Shown here: piece by piece, positions 2,351 through 58,903 of the stretch
How positions within the stretch are numbered: the first letter of the stretch is position 1
Layout: each line of letters starts with the position of its first letter
Assembly (NCBI GenBank): GCA_964415025.1
Contig: CAYPXF010000001.1
Span: 9,390 to 73,389, forward strand
DNA: 64,000 nucleotides
Reading direction: 5' to 3'
From: an uncultured Gammaproteobacteria bacterium
Lineage (GTDB): Bacteria > Patescibacteriota > Patescibacteriia > UBA10025 > JAHIVO01
The notes under the pieces: generated by a model
Told to the model about the DNA's origin: nothing
Database searches by the model: none
The model's input: only the letters and a program-made list of their open reading frames with translations
Translations under genes and position numbers: made by a program

Positions 2351-2355
2351 TAACT

Positions 2356-5725: not shown

Positions 5726-7979
5726 ATTCAAATATATATATATCATCAATTTTTTTATATGTGCCCATTAATTCTATCTGTTTCTTGAGTGTATAGTCAC
5801 TAATCCATCTCTCCTCGGTCACAAAATAACATTTATCAGTCTTCGTAATATCGAGGGCTTTTTGTAAATCTATTTTTTTTGGATCTCGAAACAAATTTTG
5901 CTGAATTTCAACAAGCGCAGGTTGACTAAATTCTTCACCAATAGTAAATCCGCCCCCTATTATTTTTTTTGCTGATATGCTCTCTAATGCTAATAGTGGC
6001 CAAGTATCACTGATAACACAATATCTAGTTTCATCCTTTATCCTTTTATAGATATACTCCATTGCTTTCAATTCTGAAGCAGAAACCATCCGCAGTACTG
6101 GACCTGAAACATAATTAAAAAGTAATATAATTGAGATCATGATTGCTAAGCTAGATACAATAATCTTTTTATTATTTGCAAGCAAATAAATATTATAAAC
6201 TCCAAATACAACTAAGGGCAGTAAAAAAAGATATAATAGCAAGTCAATTCTGCTAGATAATGGCGCTGGACCATTAATAATATACCGGCTTCCGATATAC
6301 AACACTAGAAAAAAAGACATGACAAATATTAATATAATATTTCTGAATATTTTCGCTATTTTTAAATAAACTATTCCACTGATTATTAATACTAATAAAA
6401 ATAAGTTAGCAATAAATGATGTAGTAATTGATTTTATTGGATACCAATGCATCAGCTGTGGTATATTGTTTAAATTATAAAAGAATGTACCTGATGCAGC
6501 TATAGAACCAAACTGTGTTATACCAAATATATTAAGTATCCATCTGCCGAGTGACCGAGGTGTTTCCCAACTTAATAGACTAGCAGTGTCAAAAGCTGAG
6601 CTAAGATTAAAAATATTTGCATAATATATATCCAAACTTATAATTATTGTGCTTATTGTTAATGATCCTACTGCGATAATTATACAATGATAAATCTTTT
6701 TGCTTAGTTTTATAGTTGTTACCTTTTTTACTGCCTTGTAAAGTACAATAATGCTAAGTAAAAGAACCCATATAACCAAGGCTATGATATAATTTAAATA
6801 CAACATCAATGTAAGAATACCTATGAATACGTAACCCTTTTTTGTAGGCACCTTACTTACATCTAATAATACCAACGCTGCAAATATAAATAAAAGATGT
6901 CCAAATGAGTATGGCACGGTAATAGCCCCATACACTTGTAGAACCCAAAATATTGTACTGGAAAATGATAAAAGTAGAGGTATAATTTTACTATGTGGAC
7001 ATACTATTTTACCAATTTTGTATAATAATATCGGTGTGAATAATGACCATAATAAAAATACCAGTACTAAATCAATCCAAAATATATCAATCGCGGCTAT
7101 CTTACTAATAATTACAGTTATCGCCCACTGGTTTGCGTATGATGTTTTATTACCTACCAAGAAGACTGAAGGTATTTTAACCTGACCAAATTCTTTATAT
7201 GAAATAGTATCATCGAGAAAACTTGGCGATACTACATTTCCTTCAGCAATATATCTCTCGGTAGCTATATGCCTCCATTTATCACCTCCGTATCCAACTT
7301 CGTATATAATTGGTAAGTAACTATGGATAAGTACTGAAAATAAAATAATTATAATGAGAATTACAGTACTTTTTAATTTAGTAAATATTAAATATAATAT
7401 TATAAAACTTGATAATAATATCACTACTAGGTATAAATTTGGAATTACTTCCCACGGTGCCATAATATAATTACTCGTGCGAGCTCCATATAGTAATAAA
7501 AAACCAATAATAAATAATAAGGGCAAGCATATTATATATATCCTTGGTACATTTAATAAATTTATTTCTTCGTAATTGTTATTTATTTCAGTACGGCTTT
7601 TATTATATATGCCTAGTAGCCAATTAGCAGCAGATATTAATACAGATACTATGAGTAATATTATAAAAATTACAACATCGGATAATTTTAAAAAGACAAT
7701 AAAAAATGCGCCTAAAAAAGCGATCGAATATATATAGAATAAAGTACTTAATGCATTATTAAATTGACCTTTAACAAAATTAAAATTACTAAATATACCA
7801 CCAAGCCATAAAATACAAATTATTGAAAATAAAAGAAATAGCACAATACCAATGGCTGATATTTGGTATGTGGTTAAATTTACATAAATGCCAATACTAA
7901 AGAGAATATTTATTAGCGTAAATATTCCATATTTATTAACACGAACAGTATCTGCTAACTGAATAAGTAATTGTTTCAT
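5703..7979 (-). CDS. Large polytopic membrane protein with a soluble C-terminal domain. It may be a GT-C type glycosyltransferase or a polymerase.
   Basis: 758 aa with about 18 hydrophobic helices followed by a ~150-aa hydrophilic C-terminus. It sits in the polysaccharide locus. No diagnostic motif was recognised. Confidence 0.45.
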   Translation of the reverse strand: MKQLLIQLADTVRVNKYGIFTLINILFSIGIYVNLTTYQISAIGIVLFLLFSIICILWLGGIFSNFNFVKGQFNNALSTLFYIYSIAFLGAFFIVFLKLSDVVIFIILLIVSVLISAANWLLGIYNKSRTEINNNYEEINLLNVPRIYIICLPLLFIIGFLLLYGARTSNYIMAPWEVIPNLYLVVILLSSFIILYLIFTKLKSTVILIIIILFSVLIHSYLPIIYEVGYGGDKWRHIATERYIAEGNVVSPSFLDDTISYKEFGQVKIPSVFLVGNKTSYANQWAITVIISKIAAIDIFWIDLVLVFLLWSLFTPILLYKIGKIVCPHSKIIPLLLSFSSTIFWVLQVYGAITVPYSFGHLLFIFAALVLLDVSKVPTKKGYVFIGILTLMLYLNYIIALVIWVLLLSIIVLYKAVKKVTTIKLSKKIYHCIIIAVGSLTISTIIISLDIYYANIFNLSSAFDTASLLSWETPRSLGRWILNIFGITQFGSIAASGTFFYNLNNIPQLMHWYPIKSITTSFIANLFLLVLIISGIVYLKIAKIFRNIILIFVMSFFLVLYIGSRYIINGPAPLSSRIDLLLYLFLLPLVVFGVYNIYLLANNKKIIVSSLAIMISIILLFNYVSGPVLRMVSASELKAMEYIYKRIKDETRYCVISDTWPLLALESISAKKIIGGGFTIGEEFSQPALVEIQQNLFRDPKKIDLQKALDITKTDKCYFVTEERWISDYTLKKQIELMGTYKKIDDIYIFEFNPETVR

Positions 7980-9121
7980 GTTGCGTTATAAATTGCTACT
8001 AATTTATCTACTATAACATCCCATGAGAAGTGTTTCACTACTTTCTTTTTACCATTAGCTCCATATTCTTTTTTTAATTCTTCATTGTTTATAATAATGC
8101 GTATCTTTTTTGCAAGTTCTCTATCATTCCCTACCCGAAACGTAAGACCGTCCTTTCCTGTATTAATCAAGGTTCGAACCCCAGGCAAATCAGAAGTTAT
8201 AACCGGCGTACCGCACGCCATTGCCTCCAGCGTTACCAGGCCATATGCTTCTGTTTTATCAGTTGAAGGTAGTACTAATACATCAGCAACGTTATAAATA
8301 TCTATCAGTGTATCATTATCTACTTTATTTAAAAAGAATACCCTCGACTTAAGTGCGAGTTTATTGGATTGTTCCTCATATTCTGACTGTAAATTTCCTT
8401 TTCCAACAATAATTAATTTTGCTTCTGGCAACTCTTTCATGGCATTGAGCAATACGTCCAATCCTTTGAAATAGTGCGCTTCGTCAAGGCCGCCGACAAA
8501 AAGAACTATCTTTTTTTTATCTTTTCTGATTTTCTCAACTATTTCTCCTGTTATTTCTTTTTCTCTGAACTTATTTATATCTACACCATTAGCAAGGGGT
8601 ATAAATTTGTTCTCATGAGCACTATAGTATTTATATATGTCAGAATGTTCAAAATAATCCCAGGTTGATACAAGTACTTTATTCGCCCGCATAACAATTA
8701 GTTTGGTAAATACTGTCTTATATATCCAGAATAAATATCGTACCCATTTTCTACCCACTAAGTCCATTTGGTATTGTAATATAATCCTTACTTTTTTATC
8801 TAACAATAAATATAAATATAGAAACTCTAATCCAATAAACGGATAATGTATATGTACAATATCGTATTCTTTTATTTCTTTGCTAATATTAGGTAACAGG
8901 GAGGCATTCCCAAAGGTCAACAATGATTTTTTTTTAATTACTCGATATTTTGCGGGGTGATACATGTCCTGTATCTCATTTTTATATGACGGTATAATGA
9001 CATCAACATTCCACCCTCTTTTCGCCAGCCCCTCTACCTGATTTTTACATACATTACCAATCCCTCCCTTATACGGAGGGAATGTCGATACCACATGTGC
9101 TACTCGTAGTTTTTGTTTCAT
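7976..9121 (-). CDS. Glycosyltransferase family 1 (GT4)
   Basis: KVAHVVSTFPPYKGGIGNVCKNQVEGLAKRGWNVDVI is the N-terminal GT4 motif, and the C-terminus has a VLPSTDKTEAYGLVTLEAMACGTPVITSD block. Confidence 0.8.
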   Translation of the reverse strand: MKQKLRVAHVVSTFPPYKGGIGNVCKNQVEGLAKRGWNVDVIIPSYKNEIQDMYHPAKYRVIKKKSLLTFGNASLLPNISKEIKEYDIVHIHYPFIGLEFLYLYLLLDKKVRIILQYQMDLVGRKWVRYLFWIYKTVFTKLIVMRANKVLVSTWDYFEHSDIYKYYSAHENKFIPLANGVDINKFREKEITGEIVEKIRKDKKKIVLFVGGLDEAHYFKGLDVLLNAMKELPEAKLIIVGKGNLQSEYEEQSNKLALKSRVFFLNKVDNDTLIDIYNVADVLVLPSTDKTEAYGLVTLEAMACGTPVITSDLPGVRTLINTGKDGLTFRVGNDRELAKKIRIIINNEELKKEYGANGKKKVVKHFSWDVIVDKLVAIYNAT

Positions 9122-9123
9122 TA

Positions 9124-10098
9124 TTATTTAATCTGCTCTCTCCAGTAATTCAATGTGTCTACGAGCGTTGTGTTCATATAGTCAATTTCTGGTTTCCATC
9201 CTGTAGTATCACAAAACTTAGAGTTATCACCAAGCAATACCGGCACATCAGAGGGTCGCATTCTTTTCGGATCTTGTATCACTTTTATCCCCTTATGATT
9301 AGAGTGATTAATGAGTGCCTGCAGCACATCCTTTATTTTGTAATCCTGACCAGAGCAAATATTATATACCTCTCCGGGTTCGCATTTTTCGGTGGCGATC
9401 CAGTAAGCCTTTACGATATCACGCACATCAGTAAAATCACGTCGTGCATCTAGGTTGCCGACCTGAATAACGGGTTCTTTTCTACCACGCTCTATTTCTG
9501 CAACTTGTTTTGCAAAATTACTATCCACAAAAACATCTCCCCGTCTTGGGCCAGAATGATTAAATGTTCTTGTCCGTATTATTCGCACGCCATAACTCAT
9601 GTAATATTGATAGCCCATGTAGTCTTGTGCAACTTTAGATACGGCATACGGCGACATCGGGCGTAGCGGGTTTGATTCTCGTATAGGGATTTCATCAGGC
9701 TTCACCAGGCCATATTCTTCTGAAGAGCACGCAATTTGTATGACGGGGTTATAGTCATCGCTTATTAATTTTCTGACCGCCTCAAAAACATTACACTGTC
9801 CTGTAATATTTATTTCAAGCGTTTCGCTAGGAGATTCCCATGAGGTCGGGACAAAACTTTGCGCCGCCAGATGAAATATCTTATCTGGCTTAATTGTTTC
9901 AATAATACTCGATACATTATGGGCATCTTTGATATCACATTCATAAAAAGATATTGATGACTCAATGTCCTGGATATTTGCCATATTGCTTCGCCAGCGT
10001 TTGATGCCAAATATTTCAACATCCGGATGATGCTCTAAGATGTACTCGGCTAGATGACTGCCTACAAATCCGGTTATCCCGGTAATTAACACTTTCAT
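9124..10098 (-). CDS. NAD-dependent sugar-nucleotide epimerase/dehydratase. It resembles GDP-mannose 4,6-dehydratase or GDP-6-deoxy-4-keto-mannose reductase.
   Basis: Starts MKVLITGITGFVGSHLAEYIL with a Rossmann GxxGxxG loop, and has a YxxxK-type SDR core at YAVSKVAQDY. Confidence 0.7.
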   Translation of the reverse strand: MKVLITGITGFVGSHLAEYILEHHPDVEIFGIKRWRSNMANIQDIESSISFYECDIKDAHNVSSIIETIKPDKIFHLAAQSFVPTSWESPSETLEINITGQCNVFEAVRKLISDDYNPVIQIACSSEEYGLVKPDEIPIRESNPLRPMSPYAVSKVAQDYMGYQYYMSYGVRIIRTRTFNHSGPRRGDVFVDSNFAKQVAEIERGRKEPVIQVGNLDARRDFTDVRDIVKAYWIATEKCEPGEVYNICSGQDYKIKDVLQALINHSNHKGIKVIQDPKRMRPSDVPVLLGDNSKFCDTTGWKPEIDYMNTTLVDTLNYWREQIK

Positions 10099-10104
10099 AA
10101 TTTT

Positions 10105-11148
10105 TTATTCTTTCAATGATAATTCTTTTACGCTGATCCCATAATCTAAAAACCATTGTTTGATTTCTTTTTGTGTTGCCCGTACGCTTATGTTCTTTCT
10201 TTTTGTGATCATTTTTTGCGCTCCTGCTAATGCATGGAGCCACCCTTTACACACCGCATATACAAGCTTAACAAACGAATACTCCTTAACAAAATTACCT
10301 GATGATCCTTTGTGCGTCACTATGGCTACCGCTTGGTACGTATACCGTTTACATGAGTAATATATACTTGCCAGTATCATGCCCAGCGGCAGCAGTTTGA
10401 TGATAAACCAGATCCTGTTTCTCTCGATATAATACGCTTTTCGAGGAGAATATTTACCGGTCGTAGCGGAATACATATGATACACCCTCGCGTCAGGAAT
10501 AAATTTTGCTTTCCAGCCGGCGAGGCGTCCTCGAAAACCCAAATCGCTGTCCTCGAGGTAGAATTGAAAATCTTCATCGAGGAGTCCGATCTCATCAAGC
10601 ATTTTTTTGCTATACACCCCCCCACAACCGCTTGGCATTAAAATATCAGATTTATTATCAAATTGTCCCTCATCAGATTCCATTCTCCCCCTTCCTCTGC
10701 ATATCCCGTCCCGATAAATAATCAATCCTGTACTATCAATTATTTTTTTATCATAATAATTTAATATTTTTAATGCCCACATACCTGTCATATCCCGCTG
10801 GTTTTGTATGGTTTTGAGGATAGCAGCTAAACAATCTTCAGCGAGTTCAACATCATTATTAAGAAGTAAAATATAGTCCCCGCGAGCGTGTCGAATGCCA
10901 GCATTATTTCCAGCGGCATACGTATTTATTTTATTGACAATAGTTTTTATTGAAGGGAACTGTTTTTTAATATACTGAACAGAATTATCTGTGGAACCAT
11001 TATCTACAACAATAATCTCAAAATCAGATATTGTTTGTCGAAACAGTGATGGCAAACATATTTGTAAGCATTCTAAACCATTATAATTTAATATGACTAC
11101 TGATATAAGCGGATTTTTTGAAATTTCAGCCTCAAGCATTTGGATCAA
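10105..11148 (-). CDS. Glycosyltransferase family 2
   Basis: ISVVILNYNGLECLQICLPSL...IIVVDNGSTDNS is the GT2 signature. Confidence 0.8.
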   Translation of the reverse strand: MIQMLEAEISKNPLISVVILNYNGLECLQICLPSLFRQTISDFEIIVVDNGSTDNSVQYIKKQFPSIKTIVNKINTYAAGNNAGIRHARGDYILLLNNDVELAEDCLAAILKTIQNQRDMTGMWALKILNYYDKKIIDSTGLIIYRDGICRGRGRMESDEGQFDNKSDILMPSGCGGVYSKKMLDEIGLLDEDFQFYLEDSDLGFRGRLAGWKAKFIPDARVYHMYSATTGKYSPRKAYYIERNRIWFIIKLLPLGMILASIYYSCKRYTYQAVAIVTHKGSSGNFVKEYSFVKLVYAVCKGWLHALAGAQKMITKRKNISVRATQKEIKQWFLDYGISVKELSLKE

Positions 11149-11479
11149 TATCTTTCAGACTTTCTTTTCTGATAAATTCCTCGATTTTCCTTTCCATGCG
11201 TTTGACAATCACATAATTCCTAAACGTAACGCCAAAAAGCACGACAATGCCGACGATAATAACGAGATCAAACGTACGGCTGATACTAAACGCTTCCAAA
11301 ATAAATTTTACGCTTGTTGGAAATAAGACTACAACGACCAAGCCGATCCATAATACCTGCCATAAAATAAATTCTATTCTCCTAAATTCTCCCCGCCGGA
11401 AATGCAGGTAGCTAAAATAGATCATCCACAGCGCGAATAGTATAGCTAATATCTGTATACCGATCATATAATTCTCCAC
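11132..11479 (-). CDS. Small membrane protein, DUF2304-like, partner of the downstream GT2
   Basis: 115 aa with 3-4 TM segments, immediately 3' of and overlapping a dolichol-phosphate-mannose-synthase-like GT2. This is the usual DUF2304/GtrA-type pairing. Confidence 0.55.
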   Translation of the reverse strand: MENYMIGIQILAILFALWMIYFSYLHFRRGEFRRIEFILWQVLWIGLVVVVLFPTSVKFILEAFSISRTFDLVIIVGIVVLFGVTFRNYVIVKRMERKIEEFIRKESLKDIDPNA

Positions 11480-12126
11480 ATTAACATATTAAAAAATATT
11501 CTGATCCCGTCAATAATTGTCGTCCCTTTGTACCGGTCGGTATAGATTGTATCGATTGCTATTTCAGCGTGTGGGAGCTTATGCTTTCCGGCATTGACAA
11601 TCATTTCTGTCTCTACGGCATACCGTGATGAATTCCATTTTATTTTTTTATACGCTTCTGACCGTATTGCTCTGAATCCGCTTTGCGTGTCTGAAATGTA
11701 AATTCTAAATAAAATAGAAGTCGCTAACGAAAGAAATTTGTTGCCAAGCATCATGACTAACGGCATATCTTTACCTATTTTCCGAGAACCAAATACAATA
11801 TGCGCTCCCTTTTTTTCTACTGTCTCGATGAACCGAGGAATGTCTTCTGGTTTGTGCTGTCCGTCGCCATCCATCAGCACTATGATATCTGCGCCAAGTT
11901 TGATGCCCGCCTCACACCCGGTTTTCAGAGCCGCGCCTTTACCTAGATTTATTCTATGCCGTAAATACTTGATATCTTTACCAAAGCTACTAATAACATG
12001 TGCCGTATTATCTGTTGAGCCATCATCAACAATAATAATTTCATCAACATATGCAGCGGCCACTTTTATGATTGGCGCGATTCTTTTACCTTCATTAAAA
12101 GCTGGGATAACAGCGACAGATTTCAT
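11464..12126 (-). CDS. Glycosyltransferase family 2, dolichol-phosphate mannosyltransferase-like (polyprenyl-phosphate sugar synthase)
   Basis: VAVIPAFNEGKRIAPII...IIVDDGSTDNT, and the ~220 aa size matches the DPM1/GtrB family. Confidence 0.8.
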   Translation of the reverse strand: MKSVAVIPAFNEGKRIAPIIKVAAAYVDEIIIVDDGSTDNTAHVISSFGKDIKYLRHRINLGKGAALKTGCEAGIKLGADIIVLMDGDGQHKPEDIPRFIETVEKKGAHIVFGSRKIGKDMPLVMMLGNKFLSLATSILFRIYISDTQSGFRAIRSEAYKKIKWNSSRYAVETEMIVNAGKHKLPHAEIAIDTIYTDRYKGTTIIDGIRIFFNMLMWRII

Positions 12127-15561: not shown

Positions 15562-16011
15562 TCACCTTTTAAACGTCCAGTATTTGTTGCCAAAATAATT
15601 ACTAAACAGGACAATCAAAATTGCTGATATTTTAGCGAAAAAATCCTCATATAATCCAAATAATGTTTCTAATCTGGTAAACTCGATTATGCTGTAGGTA
15701 ATACCGAGATTTATTAAATAATTTATCGCGCTTACGGTAACAAATTTTACATATTCACTCCTGGCTTGTCCACTATTCCAGCGTCGGAACGTCCATAATT
15801 TATTAAAAATAAAGTTACTGAAAATAGCTAAAAACACGCTGATGGCCGTAGCGTACAGATAATACATACCAGCCGCGCGCGTGAGTAACGTATACGTAGT
15901 AAAATCAACTATGGCGCCGCTCACACCTACTATGCTGAATTTTGCGAATTCATATACCACGGGCTTATTGCTGGCTATGGCCTGAATTTTATTCAACGAC
16001 TGTTTAATCAT
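15562..16011 (-). CDS. GtrA-family membrane protein (polysaccharide synthesis / flippase-like)
   Basis: 149 aa with 4 TM segments. FAKFSIVGVSGAIVDFTTYTLL...NFIFNKLWTF is the GtrA signature. Its start ATG overlaps the stop of the upstream protease (ATGA). Confidence 0.75.
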   Translation of the reverse strand: MIKQSLNKIQAIASNKPVVYEFAKFSIVGVSGAIVDFTTYTLLTRAAGMYYLYATAISVFLAIFSNFIFNKLWTFRRWNSGQARSEYVKFVTVSAINYLINLGITYSIIEFTRLETLFGLYEDFFAKISAILIVLFSNYFGNKYWTFKR

Positions 16012-18152
16012 CGTATAGTCGCCACATTAACCCCGCCCCGGAACGTCTCGGCATAGGCGAAAAAGTGCGACTGCAGCTGGCCCTGGTAATTAAATACCCT
16101 GACATGCGGACCGCCGGTAAATCCGGCACCCGCGATAATCTCCGCGGTCCCGTCTCCGTCTAAGTCTCCTGCTGCTACGTTCACCCCGCCCCGGAACGTC
16201 TCGGCATAGGCGAAAAAGTGCGACTGCAGCTGGCCCTGGTAATTAAATACCCTGACATGCGGACCGCCGGTAAATCCGGCACCCGCGATAATCTCCGCGG
16301 TCCCGTCTCCGTCTAAGTCTCCTGCTGCTACGTTCACCCCGCCCCGGAACGTCTCGGCATAGGCGAATAATTCTGTTTGTTCATTGCCATATATATCAAA
16401 CACTCTAATATGCGGACCACCGCCATTGCCGGCTCCGGTGATTATTTCATCAATACCGTCGCCGTCGACATCGCCGGCCGCCACGTGGACTCCGCCGCGG
16501 AATGTCTCGGCATAGGCAAAGAACTGACTAATGACGCTGCCGTCCTGTTTAAATACTCTGACCTGCGGACCACCGCCATTGCCGGCTCCGGTGATTATTT
16601 CATCAATACCATCGCCGTCGACATCGCCGGCCGCCACGTGGACTCCGCCGCGGAATGATTCTCCATAAGCAAAAAATTGGCTGATCACCTCTCCGTTTGT
16701 CCTGAATAACCGAACCTGCGGCCCGCCAGTATCACCTGCGCCGGTGATAATCTCGTGAAAGCCATTCCCGTCAGTATCACCAGAGGCAACATATACCCCT
16801 CCCCGGAATTGTTCGCCATAAGCGAAAAAGTGCGACTGGAGTTCACCGTACAGATCAAACTGCCTGACATGAGGCCCGCCGGTATATCCCGCACCGACGA
16901 CAATATTTTCTGACGCTGGAATTAAATTGCCAAATACAGCGCCGATATTGATCCGTCCTGCTCCCAGTCCAGCTTCTGAAACAGCAGCAGCGTGGGATTT
17001 TAGCATTTGTTCGATTTGCGCATTAGTAAGGAGCGGGTTATGCGCTTTTATCAGTGCGGCAGAACCGGCTACCACCGGTGTCGCCAGCGACGTTCCTGAC
17101 CAGCCACTGGCATAATACGATTCGAGGCTTTGGTCCGGCGCATAGACTATAGTTGACAGGTAGCTTGTCGCTGGTGCGGCAATATCTACGCATGTATCGC
17201 CGTAATTTGAGGCATTGCTTATTTGGCTGTTAGCGTATGTTTTGAAACGGGCGTCATTCTGATCAGTTCCGCCAACACCAATCACATTGTCGTTGCACAC
17301 CGGGTAGCGGGGCTGTTGGTCTAGATTTATATTGTTATTCCCGGCGGCGGCAAAAATCATGACACCGGCCGCGGTAGCTTCATTAATAATTTGCGCTAAT
17401 ACGGTGTCAGTCTCATTGCCGACAAAACTTAGATTAATAATATCCGCTCCATTGCGCATGGCATACCGTACCCCGGCAGCAATATCACCAGTATCTCCCA
17501 TGCCCGCGTCATTCAGCACCCGAACGCTCATCATGCGTACGGTCCAATTCATGCCAGTTATGCCTTTGTTATTATTGCCCTTGGCCCCGGCAATACCGGC
17601 CACGACGCTCCCGTGATGCACTGCTGCGGCAGTCCATGATCCGCTGAACTGCGGCTGGGGGTCGTTTTGGTCACCGACAAAATCCCAGCCATAATAATCG
17701 TCTACATACCCATTTGCGTCATCGTCTATGCTATTGTTCGGTATTTCATCAGTATTATGCCAAATATTTTGCTGGAGGTCCGGATGGTCTAGATCAATAC
17801 CAGTATCCAGCACCGCTATGACAATACCGTCATCACCAGTGGTGGTATCCCATGCTTGCGGGGCATTAACTTTTTCTAAATACCACTGGTTTTGGTAATA
17901 GGTATCACCTGGCACAACTGCTAACTCGTAAGTGCGGTTTTCCCCTGCGTAGTCTACAACAGGATCAGCATTTAGACGCTGGAGCAATGCGCCAGTGTCT
18001 TCGTGTGAACCGAGCCGTACCGTATGAAATGTTTCCTGATGCTTTAGTTTGACGACAATGCTGTTTCCTTTTGGCGGGCTAGCCACCGCTGGCTGTCCCA
18101 GCAGCAGTCCGCACGCGATTACTGGTAGTAGTACAGTGGCTAATACTTTCAT
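16008..18152 (-). CDS. Secreted subtilisin-like serine protease (peptidase S8) with C-terminal FG-GAP/VCBS-type 51-aa repeats
   Basis: Signal peptide MKVLATVLLPVIACGLLLGQPAVA. The catalytic triad contexts are VLDTGID (Asp), HGSVVAGIAGA (His) and GTSLATPVVAGSAAL (Ser). There are about 6 repeats of FFAYAETFRGGVxVAAGDxDGDG..EIIxGAG.GGP.VRVF. Confidence 0.85.
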   Translation of the reverse strand: MKVLATVLLPVIACGLLLGQPAVASPPKGNSIVVKLKHQETFHTVRLGSHEDTGALLQRLNADPVVDYAGENRTYELAVVPGDTYYQNQWYLEKVNAPQAWDTTTGDDGIVIAVLDTGIDLDHPDLQQNIWHNTDEIPNNSIDDDANGYVDDYYGWDFVGDQNDPQPQFSGSWTAAAVHHGSVVAGIAGAKGNNNKGITGMNWTVRMMSVRVLNDAGMGDTGDIAAGVRYAMRNGADIINLSFVGNETDTVLAQIINEATAAGVMIFAAAGNNNINLDQQPRYPVCNDNVIGVGGTDQNDARFKTYANSQISNASNYGDTCVDIAAPATSYLSTIVYAPDQSLESYYASGWSGTSLATPVVAGSAALIKAHNPLLTNAQIEQMLKSHAAAVSEAGLGAGRINIGAVFGNLIPASENIVVGAGYTGGPHVRQFDLYGELQSHFFAYGEQFRGGVYVASGDTDGNGFHEIITGAGDTGGPQVRLFRTNGEVISQFFAYGESFRGGVHVAAGDVDGDGIDEIITGAGNGGGPQVRVFKQDGSVISQFFAYAETFRGGVHVAAGDVDGDGIDEIITGAGNGGGPHIRVFDIYGNEQTELFAYAETFRGGVNVAAGDLDGDGTAEIIAGAGFTGGPHVRVFNYQGQLQSHFFAYAETFRGGVNVAAGDLDGDGTAEIIAGAGFTGGPHVRVFNYQGQLQSHFFAYAETFRGGVNVATIR
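16031..16367. repeat. Tandem 153-bp direct repeat. Two units are 100% identical (16031-16183 and 16184-16336) and a 31-bp third partial copy follows. The repeat encodes the last FG-GAP units of the protease.
   Basis: Direct reading of the sequence. The period is 153 bp (51 codons). Identity breaks at 16368 into older, diverged units. Confidence 0.9.
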
Positions 18153-20804: not shown

Positions 20805-22625
20805 CTAACGCTTTAGCACTGCTAGAAACGCTTCCTGGGGGATATCTACCCGTCCGTGTGAACGCATGCGTTTTTTCCCCTTTTTCTGTTTTTCCAGGAG
20901 CTTGCGCTTTCGGGTGACATCGCCGCCATACAGATTTGCCGTGACATCTTTTCGGAGCGGCGGGATTCTGCCGGACGCTATTATTTTCGCGCCAATAGCT
21001 GCCTGGATTTTCAGCTCAAACTGCTGCCGTGGCAGCGCCTCTTTTAGCGTGTCGACGATTTTTCTGGCCACGACGTACGCTTCATCAGTATAAACGATGG
21101 TCGACAGCGCCTCAACTGTTTCTTCTGCAACCAATATGTCTAGCCGCGCTACGTTACATGTGCGGTACCCGATTACTTCATAATTCATAGAAGCAAATCC
21201 AGCACTCACACTCTTCAGTGTATCATAAAAATCAACGATAATGCTAGCTAACGGCATCTCGTAGTGCAGGACGACCTTGTGCTCGTCCAAATACTCGGTG
21301 GTTCGGTATTCGCCTCGCTTTTCCTGTACCAGCGTCATAGCTTCACCGATATAATCACTCGGCGTGATAATGTCAATCCGCGCCCATGGTTCTTCGATCG
21401 ACTCAATATACGACGGTTTTGGCAGCTGGTGGGGGCTGGTGATATGCAGAGTGGCAGCCGCGCCGTGCTTTTTATCTTTGCGCTCTTGCGCCTTTTGGCC
21501 AGCTTCATTAAGCGTAACCTGATAGCCTACAGATGGCGCGGTGATAATCAGAGCCAAATCATATTCACGCTTCAGCCGTTCCTGGAAAATTTCCAAATGC
21601 AATACGCCGAGAAAACCGCACCGAAAACCAAAACCCAGCGCCTCTGACTGTTCTGGTTCATAGAAAAGGGAGGCGTCATTAAGCGAGATTTTTTCTATAG
21701 CGTCACGCAAGTCTGGATAATCATCTCCTTCTTTGCAGTACACGCCGGCAAATACCATGGGTTTGAGCGTTTTGTATCCGGACAATGGCTTCGCGGCTGT
21801 TTTTTTTGCGCTGGTTATCGTATCACCGACGCGGCAATAATTGACGTCTTTGAGACCGGTCACAACATACCCGATATCGCCAGCGCTTATCTCTTCGCTG
21901 GCAATAAGCTGTGGGTGAAAATTTCCGACCTCAAGCACATCTGTCTGCTTTTGTGTCGCCATGAATTCAATCCGCTCCTGACTCTGTAATGATCCGGACA
22001 CGACACGTACATAGGCAATAACGCCGCGATATTCATCATATACTGAATCAAAAATAAGCATACGCAGCGGGTCCTGCTCCTGACCAGCTGGCGGTTGGAC
22101 TTGTTTAATAACTGCGTCCAGGACCTCTGTGACGTGCTCTCCTGTTTTTGCCGATACGGCAATAATATCCTCACGGGCACAGCCAATAAGCGACATTATG
22201 TCCTGTGCTGTTTTATCGACGTTTGCGTTTGGTAGGTCAATTTTATTGATAACAGGAATAATGGCGAGGTCTTGGTCAAGGGCTAAGTATAAATTTGCTA
22301 ATGTCTGCGCCTCAATTCCTTGCGTTGCGTCTATGAGCAATACCGCCCCCTCAACTGCGGCGAGCGAACGAGACACTTCGTATGAAAAATCCACGTGGCC
22401 CGGCGTGTCAATAAGGTTGAGCTCATAATCCCTGTACCTCATCTTAACCGGCTGAAGCTTGATAGTTATGCCTCGTTCGCGCTCGAGCTCCATCTGATCG
22501 AGTACCTGCTCCTTCATCGAGCGTTTAGCTACTGTTTTCGTTACTTCAATAAACCGGTCGGCCAATGTCGACTTTCCGTGGTCAATATGCGCAATAATAC
22601 AAAAATTTCTAATATGATTATCCAT
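20805..22625 (-). CDS. lepA: Elongation factor 4 (translational GTPase LepA)
   Basis: N-terminus NFCIIAHIDHGKSTLADR is the G1 motif. 606 aa with the EF4-specific C-terminal domain. Confidence 0.95.
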   Translation of the reverse strand: MDNHIRNFCIIAHIDHGKSTLADRFIEVTKTVAKRSMKEQVLDQMELERERGITIKLQPVKMRYRDYELNLIDTPGHVDFSYEVSRSLAAVEGAVLLIDATQGIEAQTLANLYLALDQDLAIIPVINKIDLPNANVDKTAQDIMSLIGCAREDIIAVSAKTGEHVTEVLDAVIKQVQPPAGQEQDPLRMLIFDSVYDEYRGVIAYVRVVSGSLQSQERIEFMATQKQTDVLEVGNFHPQLIASEEISAGDIGYVVTGLKDVNYCRVGDTITSAKKTAAKPLSGYKTLKPMVFAGVYCKEGDDYPDLRDAIEKISLNDASLFYEPEQSEALGFGFRCGFLGVLHLEIFQERLKREYDLALIITAPSVGYQVTLNEAGQKAQERKDKKHGAAATLHITSPHQLPKPSYIESIEEPWARIDIITPSDYIGEAMTLVQEKRGEYRTTEYLDEHKVVLHYEMPLASIIVDFYDTLKSVSAGFASMNYEVIGYRTCNVARLDILVAEETVEALSTIVYTDEAYVVARKIVDTLKEALPRQQFELKIQAAIGAKIIASGRIPPLRKDVTANLYGGDVTRKRKLLEKQKKGKKRMRSHGRVDIPQEAFLAVLKR

Positions 22626-22655
22626 AGGTAAAAATATTGATCAGTCTGGGTCTTG

Positions 22656-22752
22656 CCCCGTAAATAGCGAGCAAAGCGAGCTGTTGTACGGGGTGGTCAA
22701 TATGCGCAATAACTTGTCCCGTACAAGCGAACTCGGAGCGCTTGTATACGGG
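22656..22752. repeat. Two small palindromic elements with CCCGTA...TACGGG termini (22656-22694 and 22718-22752), embedded in a duplicated copy of the lepA 5' end
   Basis: The sequence gtggtcaatatgcgcaataa[insert]tacaaaaatttctaatatgattatccat appears at 22578-22626 without an insert (the true lepA start) and at 22692-22783 with a 41-bp hairpin insert. Confidence 0.6.
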
Positions 22753-22791
22753 ATACAAAAATTTCTAATATGATTATCCATGGTAGCGGTG

Positions 22792-24417
22792 TTAATTAAA
22801 ATGGTTATGATGTGTGAACAATAGCCGTCGAGCCTTTAGTACCCATTTATAGATTATAGAAACTTCATCGCAACGGAATATCAAAGCCAGTATAAGGTAA
22901 CAAATAATACCTACTGCCCCGGCGACCGTCCCCTGGATGAGGATACCGACAAAGCTTTGCATGTTCACGCCAAGCGCTAAAAAGTATTTTGCCGCTATGA
23001 CAACAGCTCCCATGATACCAGATACGAGGACTATCTTAGCGGTTGATATGACAATCTTCCGGTCATCCAGGTATCCTATTTTTTTGCGTAAGAATACCAG
23101 CAGCAAACTCATGTTAAACAAACTAGAAATGGAAAATGCCAAGGCCAGGCCAGTCACGCCGATCAATCGCGAAAAAATAACAGCACCGGCTACATTAATA
23201 AGCACGCTGCCGATAGCGATTTTTACCGGCGTCTTAGTATCGTGCCACGCATAAAACGAGCGCGCGAGCAACGGTATGACGCTTTGGGCAAACAGCGATA
23301 TAGAAAACATACCGAGTGTTTGTGCGGTTAAAAATGTATCCTCCCAGTCAAATGCGCCGGTACCCAGGATTACACGCACGATTTGCGCACGTAACAGCAG
23401 GATAAGGACAGAAACAGGTATGATAATAAATAATATTCGGCGGAAGCTTTTCGAAAAATGCGCAATAAACGCCTCGGTGCGTTTAGACGCATATGCCTCG
23501 CTTAAAAAAGGAAATGACGCTACTGCCACTGACACACCAAACACACTGATAGGAAAACTCTGCAAATTATTTGCTAGTGTAAAAACAGCGACCGACCCGG
23601 CAGCCAGCGTCGAACCGATGATGACGCTGATTAGCTGGTCAATCTGGTTTACCGCCAAACCAAATGTCCGTGGCAACATCAATCTGCCAATAGTTCGAAC
23701 CCCCTCGTGCTTATAATCGCGCACCGGGCGGTAACAATACCCTAAACGTATGACACCTGGCAGCTGTATGACTAAGTGAAACAATGAACCCAACACTACG
23801 CCATAGGCCAATCCATAAAGACCAAAAAATGGCACCAACAGTACAATTCCGATAATAATGCCGACATTATACACTACTGGCGCGAAAGCGAAGTTAATAT
23901 ACCGCTTAAACGAATTCAGGATGCTGGTCATGATATTACTAATACCGAAGAACAAGATACTGATCATCATAATTCTAGTCATGGTTATGGTCACTGCTTG
24001 TTTTTCCGCGGAAAAACCAGGCGCGATAAGCGGTACAATTACCGGAGCAAAAATAAAAAACACAATACCAAATAAAACCAGTCCAATCATCAGCAGATTG
24101 AGCATACTGTTGGCCAAATACCACACGTCATTCTTTTTCGATGGATCTTGCTTTGCTTTTTGTATGTATTCTATAAATACCGGAATAAATGCGGCTGATA
24201 AGGCGCCCAAAACCAACACGTTAAATACCAAATCCGGTATACGAAAGGCTGCGTAATATATATCCAGCTCATCACCCGCGCCAAATCGGTATGCCAGCAA
24301 GCGATCACGCATTAATCCAAGCAAACGGCTCGTCACAGAAGCCGCGGCTATAATAATTGCACCACCGGTTAAGGTGGTGGTGAGTTTTGACCATACTTTT
24401 CGCCACATAATGCGCAT
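22792..24417 (-). CDS. murJ: Lipid II flippase MurJ (MviN)
   Basis: 541 aa with 14 TM segments. The N-terminal region LAYRFGAGDELDIYYAAFRIPDLVFNVLVLGALSAAFIPVF is characteristic of MurJ. Confidence 0.9.
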   Translation of the reverse strand: MRIMWRKVWSKLTTTLTGGAIIIAAASVTSRLLGLMRDRLLAYRFGAGDELDIYYAAFRIPDLVFNVLVLGALSAAFIPVFIEYIQKAKQDPSKKNDVWYLANSMLNLLMIGLVLFGIVFFIFAPVIVPLIAPGFSAEKQAVTITMTRIMMISILFFGISNIMTSILNSFKRYINFAFAPVVYNVGIIIGIVLLVPFFGLYGLAYGVVLGSLFHLVIQLPGVIRLGYCYRPVRDYKHEGVRTIGRLMLPRTFGLAVNQIDQLISVIIGSTLAAGSVAVFTLANNLQSFPISVFGVSVAVASFPFLSEAYASKRTEAFIAHFSKSFRRILFIIIPVSVLILLLRAQIVRVILGTGAFDWEDTFLTAQTLGMFSISLFAQSVIPLLARSFYAWHDTKTPVKIAIGSVLINVAGAVIFSRLIGVTGLALAFSISSLFNMSLLLVFLRKKIGYLDDRKIVISTAKIVLVSGIMGAVVIAAKYFLALGVNMQSFVGILIQGTVAGAVGIICYLILALIFRCDEVSIIYKWVLKARRLLFTHHNHFN

Positions 24418-24844
24418 AGTATAACAACTTATGCTACTTTTAGCAACCCTTTATAAATAATAATGTGCGTCGTAAAACGGCACACATAGTGTGCCACTCT
24501 GTTGCATGGCGAAGAGTCCCGAAAAAAACCGCGAGACCTCCTCCTCACAAAACCTCCCCTCCTGTTTCTGCTGCAACCTCCCCTCCGGAATACCCGTGCT
24601 CTATATAACCCATAAACGCTCTTCCCCTCCTCATACGAGGATGGACCACGAGAGGCAGCGCTTTAGTAATCCCCGCAGAGTGGGTAGGTGAGAAACAGGA
24701 GGAGAGGTGGTATCAAATAATGCCGATCCTTGACTTAATATAAGGCAAGGCATACCTCTATTTTGCGTAAAGCTTCGCCTTCGGCCGTGAGCTCGAGCCG
24801 GACGGAAAACTGCTATTCATAAAAAAGGGGGTTTCCGAAGTACT

Positions 24845-24981
24845 AAAAAAGCTGCCGGCTAGAGACGAAGGGTTATACAAGCTAGTTAAGTAAACGACGT
24901 TCTCTGGCGAGAACGCGAGGAGAGAGATTTGTCTACTCCCCTAGCTTGATCTCCGCCACTGTCTTAGCCAGCAGCTTTTTT
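24845..24981. ncRNA. Candidate structured small RNA. It could be 6S-like, another regulatory sRNA, or a large bidirectional terminator-like hairpin.
   Basis: A 23-bp helix (24845-24867 with 24958-24981, including G-U pairs), then a 10/11-nt internal bubble, an 8-bp helix (caagctag/ctagcttg) and an apical 7-bp hairpin cgttctc-tggc-gagaacg. It is flanked by A6 and T6. No ORF lies within 400 bp. Confidence 0.3.
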
Positions 24982-25299
24982 ATGCCCATAGCTGATGAGC
25001 ACAGCGTATTGTAAATAATATTTTATTATTTGTCAATACATGACACCATTAGAAAAATGTGAGGAGGTTGACGGTTTATGAACCAAGCAACTTTCTTGCT
25101 ATTTACTGCACAATGGTGACATAATTTGGGCATATGTACAGCATACCGCCCGATTCAGGAATACTTAATTGCGTACTAACAGCGACCAACAACAGCACGG
25201 CTGCAATTGACATACATCCATAGAAAAAATGAAAATGCGGTATAATTTATAATGTACTGTCTCTCTCTTTTTCAAACACGAATAGTCTTCTTGTCTGGA

Positions 25300-25342
25300 A
25301 AAGAGAGGCGAGCTGTGGATCGAACACAGTCTCGCCTATGAC
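25300..25342 (-). terminator. Rho-independent terminator of the lipoprotein gene
   Basis: Minus-strand hairpin GGCGAGACUGUG-UUCGAUC-CACAG(U)CUCGCC followed by UCUCUUUUCC. Confidence 0.6.
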
Positions 25343-25357
25343 AATCAAATATTAATC

Positions 25358-33686: not shown

Positions 33687-35135
33687 CTAGGCAGCTGTCT
33701 TTGCGCTCAAAACAACCCACGGTGTCTTGAGCAGTATTTGGAAATCAAGTTTAGGTGACCAATTCTCTATGTAGTATATGTCAAGTTTGGCCTCATCTTC
33801 GAAGTGTAAATCGGAACGGCCGGACACCTGTGCCAACCCCGTCATGCCAGGCTTAATAGTTAAGAGTGTCTGATGCCAGCGCTCATACTTAGATACTTCC
33901 TCTGGCTCATGCGGTCGGGGGCCAACTAAACTCATCTCGCCCTTGAGCACATTGATGAGTTGGGGAAATTCATCGAGGCTTGTTTTCCGCAGTATTCTCC
34001 CGACCCGAGTGATGCGTGGGTCGTCCTTTATCTTGAATAAGGGGCCGTCAGATCGTTCATTATAACGTAATAAATCTTTTTTTAATTGCTGTGCGTTTCT
34101 AACCATTGATCTGAACTTGTACAGCGTAAACCGTTGTCCCCGTTCACCGACACGCTCCAGCCGGGCAAACACGCCACCTTGCGAATCGACTACAATGCAC
34201 ACCGCGACAATCATAAATACTGGTGACAGCATGATGAGCAGTAACAACGACAAGGTAAAGTCAAGTCCGCGTTTAAATATCCTGCCCCACCCGTCTAGCT
34301 TCGTACGCTGGACCTCGATAATCGGGATGCCCGCTATCATATTAATTCTAATATGGGTCGGCTGAACCTCAAATAAATCAGTCGCGTATTTGAAGGTAAT
34401 GTGGTAATCAGCGCAGGCGTTGCGTATGGCGATGACCTGCTCTTTTGGCAGGTGGGCATCGGTCTGAATTATTTCGTCAATTGTTTCTGTATTAATTTTT
34501 TTTATGAACTCATGCTGCGCAGTTTCGTCAAACTGATCATAGTGATCAATAATTTTATATCCCTGTGAGGGATATTTATGGATGTGCTTAATGATATCTT
34601 CAGTGGTCTTGTTGCTGCCAATGATAACTACATTATGCAATCCTGTGCCCTTTTTCAGCAAAGCTCGCTGAATGCCGCGTACGATTAAACGGCCAATGCT
34701 GACCATGAATATAGAAAATATCCAGCCAAAAATGACGATAAACCTGGATGAAAACAATTCACGCTGAAAAAATATTATAATAATGACCAAAGCAATCGCC
34801 GCGGTACAAGCGACAAATACCGTGGTAATCTCATCGATCAGCCGTCGCGTGCTTTTTATGGCATAGAGGCCGGACAAGGCAAATATTATTATAAATACAA
34901 ACGGAATAATAAATAGTACCTGCATATAGTCACGCAAGACTATCTCCGTAACAATCGGCTTAATGTCCGTAAAAAAGGGCACAAAGCGCAATTGGTAAGC
35001 AAAAATACCCGCACAAATAACCATGAAGTAATCAACGGGTATTAATATCGCACTGAAAATTAATTCAGACTTCTTCATATAATAGAGGTGGTAAGCTCCA
35101 GCAGGATCATAAGCCGAATTCTGTCCCGCCCGCAC
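33687..35135 (-). CDS. Polyprenyl glycosylphosphotransferase (WbaP/WcaJ-type priming sugar transferase)
   Basis: 5 N-terminal TM helices and a C-terminal bacterial sugar-transferase domain: KRGLDFTLSLLLLIMLSPVFMIVAVCI...YKFRSM...DEFPQLINVLKGEMSLVGPRP. Confidence 0.85.
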   Translation of the reverse strand: MRAGQNSAYDPAGAYHLYYMKKSELIFSAILIPVDYFMVICAGIFAYQLRFVPFFTDIKPIVTEIVLRDYMQVLFIIPFVFIIIFALSGLYAIKSTRRLIDEITTVFVACTAAIALVIIIIFFQRELFSSRFIVIFGWIFSIFMVSIGRLIVRGIQRALLKKGTGLHNVVIIGSNKTTEDIIKHIHKYPSQGYKIIDHYDQFDETAQHEFIKKINTETIDEIIQTDAHLPKEQVIAIRNACADYHITFKYATDLFEVQPTHIRINMIAGIPIIEVQRTKLDGWGRIFKRGLDFTLSLLLLIMLSPVFMIVAVCIVVDSQGGVFARLERVGERGQRFTLYKFRSMVRNAQQLKKDLLRYNERSDGPLFKIKDDPRITRVGRILRKTSLDEFPQLINVLKGEMSLVGPRPHEPEEVSKYERWHQTLLTIKPGMTGLAQVSGRSDLHFEDEAKLDIYYIENWSPKLDFQILLKTPWVVLSAKTAA

Positions 35136-35713
35136 CGTCAGACGGTGAAGGGGTAATGGTTATCTATCTTGTCCTGATATTGCTATCAGGATCATGCAAC
35201 CAACCCACCCCCACGCCTTTTATGTACGCCTTTATTACAGTTTTTTCTGTGAATGATGATGGCATCAAGCAAAACAGCAGTTTATATGCTCTATAATAGT
35301 ACACAAAAGGTGTGGGGGTCTACTTGGTCTTGCACCGGATAGGGTTTTTCACGCCAGCATGTCACCATACTGACCTGTGAGCTCTTACCTCACCGCTTTT
35401 CACCTTTACCCCCACACTGATACTTTTATTACTAGTATAATCGATTACTTGAACAAGAGTATCAGTGTGGGGGCAGTATCGTCTCTGTGACACTTTCCCT
35501 AGAATTCTGCTTTTTAAAAGGCTATAGCGCTCTTAAAAAATACGTTACTTCTGGTCGCATTTCGCGACTATCCTTGGCATCTTTGTCATAAAACAAAGAA
35601 GGGTGTTCGGACTTTCCTCTCCCCACACCAATACTTTCATTTATCGCTACTATCGGGCGTTGAAACGATAATATTGGTGTGGGGAGCAACCATCTCACCT
35701 CCTGGAGCTTACT
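35087..35713 (-). ncRNA. rnpB: RNase P RNA (bacterial type A-like), unusually long (~625 nt) because of extended P3 and extra inserted helices
   Basis: Conserved blocks read on the minus strand. AGAGGAAAGUCCG (plus 35608-35620) is the P4 5' strand. GGUAAAGGUGAAAAGCGGUGAGGUAAGAGCUCACAG (plus 35375-35410) is the P10-P12 block. GUGAAAAACCCUAUCCGGUGCAAGACCAAGUAG (plus 35320-35352) is the P13 block. ACAGAAUUCGGCUUAU (plus 35109-35124) is the P4 3' strand, with a compensatory change that preserves P4 (AAG-U-CCGAA pairs with UUCGGCUU). The closing helix GUAAGCUCCAG/CUGGAGCUUAC lies at 35703-35713 and 35087-35097. Confidence 0.8.
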
Positions 35714-37951: not shown

Positions 37952-38393
37952 TTAGAACGCCAGGCGATCAATATAGTGCGGTGCCTGGCGGCGCCTGGTT
38001 AGCCATTCAGCCGCTGATTGCTGCAGCCGTAATGGCAATGTCGCTGCGGCAAATGGTAAGTGGCATTGAGCTGCTAATTGTTGCGCTCGTGCTTCCACCG
38101 CTATATGATCCACATGACCGGATATGCCATCGGGACCAAAACTAATGATTATCTCTGGCCGAAATGATCGTATTACCTCATCTCCTTTTGCACGCACCTC
38201 GTCGCTGTGCCGTGAAACGTGACGTACCGCTTGGACCGGGCGTGGCACACACGAGCGCATTACCCCCGCCCGCTTCAATATTTTTGTGCAAGGTTCCGGC
38301 AGCAACATAGCTCTCGTCTTCAGGATGAGCAGTAATCATGAAAATCTTCTTGCCTAGAAAAGTTTTCATTCTAACATTCTTAAGAATGTTCAA
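37952..38393 (-). pseudogene. PIG-L/LmbE-family N-acetylglucosaminyl deacetylase, split by a frameshift into two ORFs (38178..38393 and 37952..38308)
   Basis: The N-terminal frame has MITAHPEDESYVAAGTL (HPDDE motif). The -1/+1 frame has RPEIIISFGPDGISGHVDHIAV (HxDH motif). The two frames overlap by 131 nt (38178-38308), and a C5 homopolymer at 38276-38280 is a plausible indel site. The true start is probably the ATG at 38369, after the TTG inside the operator palindrome. Confidence 0.55.
38373..38390. promoter_or_regulatory. 18-bp perfect palindrome AACATTCTTAAGAATGTT, a candidate ArsR-family operator overlapping the RBS of the PIG-L gene
   Basis: Perfect dyad. A second identical copy lies at 38700-38717 in front of arsR1. 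Each copy sits 4 to 21 nt upstream of an ATG start. Confidence 0.5.
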
Positions 38394-38696
38394 TTAAATC
38401 TTACCGGTCTTCGCACGACTGCCCAGTATTTGCCGGCAAACACCAGACCCCCTGAATGAATCTGCCAGTGAATAATAATGGTATTTCCCTTTTCGTATCC
38501 GTTGCACCATACCTTCACGCTCAAGCCGATTAAGGTGGAATGAAGCAGTTTTATACGAAAATTTCAGTTCACAAGTAATTGACATTACTGAATGCGGTTT
38601 TTTTGCAATCGTTTTAATAATCATCATTCGTCGTTCATTGCTTAATGCTCTGAACGCCCGAGCAAGCTGCTTTATAGTATACGTCATATTATTCAT
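38394..38696 (-). CDS. ArsR/SmtB-family transcriptional regulator. No metal-sensing CxC or DxHx10H motifs are visible.
   Basis: LSNERRMMIIKTIAKKPHSVMSITCELKFSYKTASFHLNRLEREGMVQRIRKGKYHYYSL is a winged helix of ArsR type. The ORF-track start (38720) is a TTG inside the palindrome, and the likely true start is the ATG at 38696 (MNNMTYTIKQL). Confidence 0.8.
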   Translation of the reverse strand: MNNMTYTIKQLARAFRALSNERRMMIIKTIAKKPHSVMSITCELKFSYKTASFHLNRLEREGMVQRIRKGKYHYYSLADSFRGSGVCRQILGSRAKTGKI

Positions 38697-38699
38697 TCT

Positions 38700-38717
38700 A
38701 ACATTCTTAAGAATGTT
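38700..38717. promoter_or_regulatory. Second copy of the AACATTCTTAAGAATGTT palindrome, immediately upstream of arsR1 (autoregulatory operator candidate)
   Basis: The 34-bp block cattctaacattcttaagaatgttcaa is duplicated at 38367-38400 and 38694-38727. Confidence 0.5.
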
Positions 38718-38730
38718 CAAGTGAAATATA

Positions 38731-40437: not shown

Positions 40438-40609
40438 TTTACCCTTATTATACCACACTCCTGGCGCTTTTTTAAAGCTGCTTTTTTTGTCAATAATTGC
40501 ATTATTTATTATACTAAAGGCAGTGCTGGCCAATACGCTACCGGCTGGCGCGCTAGTATTCATCAATACTACAGAGCATTTTCCGGAAATAATTTTTATC
40601 AATACCATG

Positions 40610-58552: not shown

Positions 58553-58903
58553 TTAGTTAATCGTCTTTTTAAATGCGTTGAGTTTTTTAATCAGCAGTTC
58601 TGCTTCTTTGTATAGATCAACGAGTAATTTGTCAGCTATAAACTCTCTTTCTTTACAGAACTGTAATAATGAAACAGTCTCGAGCGCCGACTTAATGGCT
58701 ATATCGATAAAGTTTCTGAAATCGCGATTTGTCGTACCGCCGGAACCTTCAGCGATATTATTGGAAATAGAGACTGCAGCTCTTTTCAGCTGCGAAGACA
58801 TCCCAAATAACTCTTCCTTTGGTAAGGTATTAGCAAAATCATATAGTCTGTTACCATAAGCTATAGCTAATTGCCAAATTTCTAATTGCTCAAACCTGAA
58901 CAT
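58553..58903 (-). CDS. Four-helix-bundle protein (the family frequently encoded in 23S rRNA intervening sequences)
   Basis: FEQLEIWQLAIAYGNRLYDFANTLPKEELFGMSSQLKRAAVSISNNIAEG. The start was trimmed to the internal ATG at 58903. Confidence 0.7.
   Translation of the reverse strand: MFRFEQLEIWQLAIAYGNRLYDFANTLPKEELFGMSSQLKRAAVSISNNIAEGSGGTTNRDFRNFIDIAIKSALETVSLLQFCKEREFIADKLLVDLYKEAELLIKKLNAFKKTIN

Follow-up and report, generated by a model that had tools for sequence, protein, structure and literature searches.

The lepA gene (EF4) of an uncultured Patescibacteria bacterium is preceded by a dead copy of its own beginning, and that upstream copy is the old start of the gene. In the stretch of DNA analyzed here (64 kb in length and referred to as the window), the 166 nt between murJ and lepA on the minus strand form a structured block, unlike a plain spacer. 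The block is a real and reproducible rearrangement of the lepA start, shared among lineages, and is best seen as a combination of known things: a partial duplication of a gene start, a relay upstream open reading frame (uORF), and a small palindromic element. The whole account, in which the lepA 5′ end was long ago partially duplicated in tandem and left a dead copy with a palindromic insert that would now act as a relay uORF, is held tentatively, with somewhat less than even confidence. An earlier note on this DNA is blind to two points: of the two copies, the upstream one is the older, and the arrangement is common to a clade. The parts of the block and its flanking genes are the following.

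22792..24417, minus strand: murJ, lipid II flippase, taken from the list of open reading frames; Pfam MurJ is recorded for the identical gene in locus L032.
22753..22781, minus strand: piece A of the old copy, the ATG with codons 2-9 and two bases of codon 10, identical to 22597-22625 at 29/29 positions and located at the ancestral start position.
22713..22752, minus strand: hairpin W1, 40 nt, cleanly inserted into codon 10 of the upstream copy, with closing stem CCCGTA/TACGGG and tail ACAAG.
22693..22712, minus strand: piece B of the old copy, codons 10-16 (IIAHIDH, the beginning of the P-loop), identical to 22578-22597 at 20/20 positions.
22652..22692, minus strand: hairpin W2, 41 nt, immediately past the old copy's His codon, with closing stem CCCGTA/TACGGG and tail GCAAG.
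22641..22781, minus strand: uORF of 46 codons from the old ATG (MDNHIRNFCIPYT...), taken from the list of open reading frames, with a TGA stop 15 nt ahead of the working lepA ATG.
22626..22651, minus strand: spacer of 26 nt from the hairpin tail to the working ATG, beginning with ACCCAGACT, as do the spacers of L116 and L123.
20805..22625, minus strand: working lepA (EF4, 606 aa), whose P-loop is intact; pieces A and B correspond to its opening 48 nt (22578-22625).

The murJ stop codon, TAA, occupies 22794-22792, and the old lepA start follows after 10 nt. Two exact direct repeats (22597-22625 with 22753-22781, 29 nt; 22578-22597 with 22693-22712, 20 nt) confirm the claim of the earlier note that the start segment of lepA is duplicated, with the correction that the native segment comprises 48 nt rather than 49, pieces A and B having one base in common. 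The hairpin said to split the duplicate is present but measures 40 nt and lies inside codon 10, not between codons 8 and 9, and the second element with the same termini is located at 22652-22692 instead of 22656-22694. The duplicate does form a uORF on the minus strand, of 46 codons rather than 50, and the upstream start, placed earlier about 150 nt before the real one, gives a measured distance of 156 nt between the two ATGs. On the lepA strand, W1 reads CCCGTATACAAGCGCTCCGAGTTCGCTTGTACGGGACAAG and W2 reads CCCGTACAACAGCTCGCTTTGCTCGCTATTTACGGGGCAAG; both begin with CCCGTA and finish with TACGGG-R-CAAG. The two inserts have folding energies of -15.9 kcal/mol (z = -3.85) and -12.0 kcal/mol (z = -1.88), and the pattern CCCGTA-N10-40-TACGGG occurs twice in the 64-kb window vs 0.10 occurrences expected from shuffles.

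An assembly artefact, an explanation that had been offered for the duplication, is effectively excluded. The sequence at 22.6-22.8 kb is supported by the Logan assemblies of two separate runs, which are identical to the window leader over 271/271 nt (SRR7048225) and 291/291 nt (SRR7048227), and homologous structures are found in four other lineages. Because two independently assembled runs give the same sequence, an artefactual origin is very unlikely; the repeats are also below the usual assembly k-mer length, which counts against it. Taken together with an artefact, a recoding device, in which TGA read-through or ribosome hopping would yield an N-terminally extended LepA, is left with a minimal probability. 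Such a device draws on the fact that the old and working ATGs of the window are in frame, with a single in-frame TGA (22643-22641) separating them. However, in none of the other four carriers are the two ATGs in frame (their distances being 115, 125, 110, and 101 nt), which excludes read-through and hopping, and in the window W1 shifts the frame, hence the upstream ORF does not encode the P-loop. Programmed translational bypass, as in T4 gene 60 and mitochondrial byps, needs a continuous ORF and matching take-off and landing codons, and no such codons restore the full ORF here. A hop over W1 would lose one Ile codon, and past piece B the sole landing site that restores ..HGKS.. is the second full copy, 116 nt on.

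The ancestral state of the junction is seen in related genomes. A systematic check for carriers covered 14 loci, comprising 5 carrier lineages and 9 non-carriers. The nine non-carriers (L002-L005, L117, L118, L120-L122) have an insert-free murJ-lepA junction in which the lepA ATG and the murJ stop overlap (ATGAATAA or ATGGATAA) or are separated by less than 25 nt. The upstream ATG of the window, lying 10 nt past the murJ stop, therefore occupies the ancestral start position. The working start has been displaced downstream, with about 156 nt added. The nearest public MurJ and LepA sequences are ~70% identical to those of the window, and no closer relative that might harbor an empty site was found above 73% identity to the window, L116, or L119 in MurJ scans of genomes and metagenomes and two LepA protein searches.

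A homologous module is located in the same place in L116, L119, L125, and L123, whose LepA proteins are about 70% identical to that of the window. Its parts follow one order: a fragment of the old start, a CCCGYA/TRCGGG hairpin, the tail GCAAGAC, a spacer of 25-45 nt, and the rebuilt start. In L116 (GCA_964549245.1), the old start ATGGAAAAT...ATTGACCAC is followed by CCCATACC...GGTACGGGGCAAG, a 25-nt spacer, and the new ATG, while in L119 (a 960-kb ENA contig) the old ATGAATAAAATTCGAAATTTTTGCA is followed by CCCCGCACAACAGCTC...TGCGGGGCAAG, a 45-nt spacer, and the new ATG. In the carrier loci with enough flanking sequence for a check of the neighbors (L116, L124, and L123), lepA is accompanied by murJ, a bPH-domain gene, a DUF5656 gene, and an HtrA-like protease gene. 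The distribution is patchy, with carriers at 5 of the 14 loci in at least 4 separate lineages. The module is present in both L123 and L125, a pair with 91% LepA identity; this shows vertical inheritance and supports an old event with later losses. Since four other distantly related lineages have the same arrangement as the window, it is real and either useful or mobile, if a modest curiosity. It also misleads gene callers: in one Logan assembly the call begins at a TTG and gives 586 aa, and in the L119 ENA contig it begins at Met37 and gives 569 aa, vs ~605 aa in reality; annotation pipelines should expect such leaders.

W2 is homologous to the hairpins of L116, L119, L125, and L123, and all six hairpins can be aligned, with the consensus CACCCCGTACAA.AGCTCACTTCGTTCAC.GTATACGGGGCAAGAC. 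The sole common structure predicted by RNAalifold is a 6-bp closing stem directly ahead of the tail, in which 88.9% of cells are paired and two pairs are altered on both sides. The best-conserved part is the tail together with the beginning of the spacer (ACGGGGCAAGAC.CAGAC). Over aligned columns, identity between elements is 70-87%, most pairs lying above the 95th percentile of shuffles, whereas the four-fold degenerate sites of lepA are 22-35% identical between separate carrier lineages, that is, saturated, and 64% identical in the L123/L125 pair. Because the hairpin and tail exceed neutral-site similarity across ~70% protein identity, something must maintain them or have spread them after the hosts diverged. 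The hairpin interiors (22-24 nt in the window, L116, and L125; 37 nt in L119) contain no twice-repeated motif. They are wholly different between the sisters L123 and L125 but alike between far more distant lineages, and this turnover within the sister pair argues that the interior is without strong constraint. The L125 element as a whole is nearer to W2 and to that of L116 than to that of its sister.

The family appears to be confined to one gene start. In a fuzzy search of ~430 kb of Patescibacteria DNA, the tail motif at one mismatch or less is found in lepA leaders only. Within the window, exact and fuzzy patterns, blastn-short, and a generic scan for a hairpin followed by CAAG detect the two local copies and no further ones. 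Copies of CCCGTA...TACGGG elsewhere, a prospect raised by the earlier note, are thus not borne out: both copies in the window lie in the lepA leader, and those in the ~430 kb are likewise in lepA leaders only. Rfam gives no match at the gathering threshold in the window, and only chance-level snoRNA matches (E > 1) in 22400-23000.

On the duplication account, lepA would have been duplicated in tandem over approximately its first 80-100 nt, which moved the working start ~156 nt downstream. The palindrome W2 would have been added just 5′ of the old Gly-Lys codons and the related insert W1 inside codon 10, while the distal part of the dead copy would have decayed into the spacer. The matches of 29 and 20 nt would have been kept identical by gene conversion, selection, or recency. 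The presence of the module in several lineages of one Patescibacteria clade would reflect an old event followed by losses, which would be easy because the repeats are direct.

The sequence beyond the hairpin bears on this proposal. In an anchored comparison with lepA from codon 18 onward, the tail GGCAAG and the spacer follow GGC AAG TCN ACN .. GCT GAY .. TTT .. GAA, with p values of 0.007 for L125, 0.021 for L119, and 0.16-0.23 for the other three, the window standing at 0.16. Fisher combination of the five p values gives about 0.002. Old lepA codons 18-27 may survive, in decayed form, as the spacer, and the comparison suggests that the entire upstream block may be a decayed copy of the first 80-100 nt of lepA. 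Upon subtraction of the hairpins, the block measures about 82 nt in the window and in L116. The L119 junction, TTTTTGCA-C-CCCGCAC, is on our reading derivable from the window/L116 type by deletion of piece B between CA microhomologies. Counting against a duplication, pieces A and B are perfect while the adjoining spacer is barely recognizable as coding, such that either conversion or selection is needed or the spacer falls outside the duplication. W1 is, moreover, a clean 40-nt insertion between perfect repeats and looks recent, and the patchy distribution requires many losses. The perfection of A and B, the clean W1, and the discordance between L125 and L123 fit a lepA-specific mobile or recombination-spread element.

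Such an element is the main, serious rival to a duplication with a relay, although it is considered unlikely overall. The hairpin, with or without the tail and spacer, would be small, non-autonomous, and targeted to the lepA 5′ end at two positions, one following ..TTTTTGYA(T) and the other following ..ATTGACCAC in the P-loop codons. An element that landed in the working copy would survive only with the 5′ end rebuilt downstream, whereas an insertion into the dead copy (W1) would need no such repair. A tiny mobile palindromic element with target duplication was one of the options in the earlier note, and in its favor the hairpins make up a single family that occurs in several lineages and at two positions of the lepA 5′ end. 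Six homologous hairpins in five lineages with saturated neutral sites, two junction positions in use, the precise 40-nt insertion of W1, the affinity of the L125 element to W2 and L116, and the patchy distribution all speak for mobility. So do the flanking repeats, which in three lineages are close to perfect: the window has exact matches of 29 + 20 nt, and by our own count L119 matches at 22/22 and L116 at about 32/33 positions.

Other findings speak against mobility. No copy is found off lepA in the 64-kb window and about 370 kb of related loci, and there are no terminal inverted repeats and no short target duplication of fixed length. The repeats that flank the module instead span 22-48 nt, from the start codon to the junction, unlike the combination expected of a REP/BIME or MITE-like repeat, for which a cognate transposase (RAYT or a DDE enzyme) would be the alternative sign. 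A Pfam scan of window ORFs reveals no transposase, integrase, Cas, TnpB, Nop/Tas, or HUH enzyme. In viral contigs, the general pattern yields 83 loci, which consist of one conserved phage gene and scattered chance matches, and the two lepA-junction patterns yield no matches; in phage and plasmid collections, the 166-nt leader is unmatched. A literature search for lepA as an integration site gave nothing informative. The simple deletion described above suffices to turn the first junction type into the second, the tail resembles the old Gly-Lys codons, and the sequence after the hairpin is like decayed lepA coding sequence. In a more specific form, the hairpin and GCAAGAC tail would constitute a new ORF-less selfish or regulatory element, specific to the P-loop-coding 5′ end of lepA, that spreads among distantly related Patescibacteria (for instance by loop-out circles and homologous re-integration after DNA uptake, or by a trans-acting enzyme) and rebuilds the gene start, or else a conserved cis-regulatory leader of EF4, a proposition that is regarded as distinctly unlikely. 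Resemblances to integron attC and Xer/dif sites failed on defining features or stayed guesswork.

Other repeats and structured features are scattered through the window. Two pairs of palindrome-containing direct repeats (38365-38398 / 38692-38725 and 62845-62872 / 63165-63192) bracket ArsR-type HTH genes (38394-38720 and 62872-63156) and look like operator sites ahead of the regulator and the next gene. Six tandem 153-nt units (60-98% identical to the first) occupy 16021-16938 within an S8 peptidase/FG-GAP gene at 16008-18152. A match to class A RNase P RNA at 35094-35705 (minus strand) is 612 nt long vs 367 nt for the model, with about 245 nt extra. A gene of the 23S-rRNA-intervening-sequence-protein family (58553-58987, minus strand) lies between the NiFe hydrogenase large subunit gene and hypA, and two adjoining paralogues of cofactor-independent phosphoglycerate mutase (52357-55472, minus strand) overlap by 31 nt. 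Positions 1-12000 harbor a glycosyltransferase/polysaccharide cluster with a GC content of 28-38% vs 41-52% elsewhere and are possibly acquired. The stretches at 24418-25357 and 40609-41479 are ORF-poor, and no tRNA genes were found in the 64-kb window.

Returning to the duplication account, the dead copy would still have a part in the expression of lepA. The old ATG would begin translation via coupling to murJ termination, and the short uORF would run through the hairpin or hairpins and stop at or just ahead of the real lepA ATG, at which ribosomes would re-initiate without a Shine-Dalgarno sequence. The hairpin may tune this relay, stabilize the murJ 3′ end, or both. We infer uORF translation, re-initiation, and any regulatory effect, whereas the sequences themselves show the layout of the leader, the ancestral place of the old start, the kinship of the modules between lineages, their conservation beyond that of neutral sites, and the position of the uORF.

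Relative to the new ATG, the uORF stop lies at -18 in the window, +5 in L116, +1 in L123, -17 in L125, and -38 in L119. The end of the L116 uORF falls inside ATGAATAA, that of L123 forms ATGA, and the L125 uORF is followed by a five-codon ORF ending at +1. An SD-like 4-mer precedes only 8/57 window ORFs and neither lepA ATG, and SD-like motifs are absent before all five carrier lepA starts. The geometry of a relay, with a stop that overlaps or comes within about 20 nt of a start lacking an SD sequence, is therefore present, L119 being an outlier at -38. A leader or decoy-start device for lepA, another suggestion of the earlier note, gains partial support in that the upstream ATG sits at the ancestral position beside the murJ stop and the uORF stops no more than 18 nt from the real start, or overlaps it, in 4/5 lineages. 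Against a relay, the frame in which the uORF passes through the conserved tail varies among lineages, and the L119 uORF ends 38 nt upstream. A consensus scan for promoters and terminators in the five leaders found none at a shared position; L119 alone has a perfect extended -10 box, TGATATAAT.

The uORF peptides of the window (22641-22781) and L125 (609-695) share PYNSSLCSLFTGQD / LYNISLCSLYTRQD, with 7/12 nucleotide differences at third codon positions (p about 0.07). A conserved micropeptide was rejected as a candidate: other carriers read the same DNA in other frames, and the similarity is treated as conservation at the nucleotide level.

The leader might also be a neutral scar, the product of a single complex error during replication (tandem duplication plus an inverted, snap-back segment) that persisted by chance and has no role, lepA being translated simply from the downstream ATG. 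This is improbable in our assessment. Nine related lineages manage without the module, the hairpin interior is fully replaced between L123 and L125, and the leader matches no known RNA family, promoter, or terminator, as would suit a scar. The closing stem and GCAAGAC tail are nonetheless conserved although the four-fold sites of lepA are saturated, and the uORF stop stays near the start in 4/5 lineages. Direct repeats so close together should, in addition, soon delete the insert, and these genomes are compact.

The opposite strand permits a further reading that is scarcely credible, that of a guide-RNA-like mini-array. On the plus strand, each hairpin follows CUUG and precedes 20 or 29 nt antisense to the lepA start, as if it were a TIGR-Tas tigRNA-like or other hairpin-plus-guide RNA that represses a gene. 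[quoted passage not shown] The likeness is one of bacterial group, palindromic units, variable interiors, and a CUU by the stem base on one strand, and the plus strand reads CUUGY-hairpin-antisense segment twice. However, the interiors span only 22-37 nt, lack the symmetric CUU..UG pattern and a double box C/D, and have no room for two 8-12-nt spacers. There is no Nop/Tas gene in the window or beside lepA in the other carriers with enough flanking sequence, the units come as one or two only and always at lepA, no plus-strand promoter was found, and the antisense segments are merely the opposite strand of a local duplication. The TIGR-Tas reading was rejected on its defining features, the box C/D spacer pair in the loop and the tas gene.

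If the duplication account is right, the window offers an example of overlapping, coupled genes pulled apart in a streamlined genome, in which the downstream start was duplicated and the dead copy kept as a putative relay. More broadly, the module would be either a new leader element controlling EF4 in uncultivated bacteria or a new gene-specific mini mobile element.

The arrangement resembles several known systems and departs from each. REP/BIME sequences, Rickettsia palindromic elements, Correia elements, and MITEs are dispersed in tens to hundreds of copies, and MITEs possess terminal inverted repeats and short target duplications of fixed length. Like these, the lepA element is an imperfect palindrome of 35-55 nt with a conserved stem base and a short flanking motif (here RCAAG), and like REP/BIME-type sequences it sits between operon genes, where such hairpins can stabilize the upstream message. 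In contrast to REP/BIME-type repeats, its copies all belong to lepA leaders, have a single orientation, and go together with a duplication of the gene start. A dispersed repeat would have many scattered copies, whereas the 64-kb window contains two, each within the lepA leader.

Template switching can form tandem duplications with an inverted segment, and gene conversion keeps the copies alike. The lepA leader shares with such products adjacent direct repeats, an uneven divergence of the old copy, and a junctional palindrome with a 3′ arm similar to the His-Gly-Lys codons nearby. It differs in that it persists across ~70% protein identity with a conserved stem and tail, which is unexpected for a neutral rearrangement.

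The SXT/R391 element reportedly integrates in the 5′ end of prfC and supplies a new 5′ coding end, as Hochhut and Waldor are said to have described in 1999. There, as here, it is a translational GTPase gene whose 5′ end is broken up and restored, and direct repeats of the gene start are left behind. Between the repeats of the lepA leaders, however, there is neither a recombinase nor cargo; only 65-100 nt separate them, consisting of the hairpin and a 25-45-nt spacer, and several lineages have the same small module.

Translational coupling by termination and re-initiation operates at overlapping ATGA or TAATG junctions and through relay uORFs. The ancestral murJ/lepA overlap of the ATGAATAA type is of this kind, and in the carriers the uORFs end at +1 (ATGA), at +5 (ATGAATAA), or 15-17 nt before an ATG that lacks an SD sequence. 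What sets the lepA leader apart from such coupling is that the putative relay ORF derives from the downstream gene itself, as a dead copy of its start, and contains a conserved hairpin.
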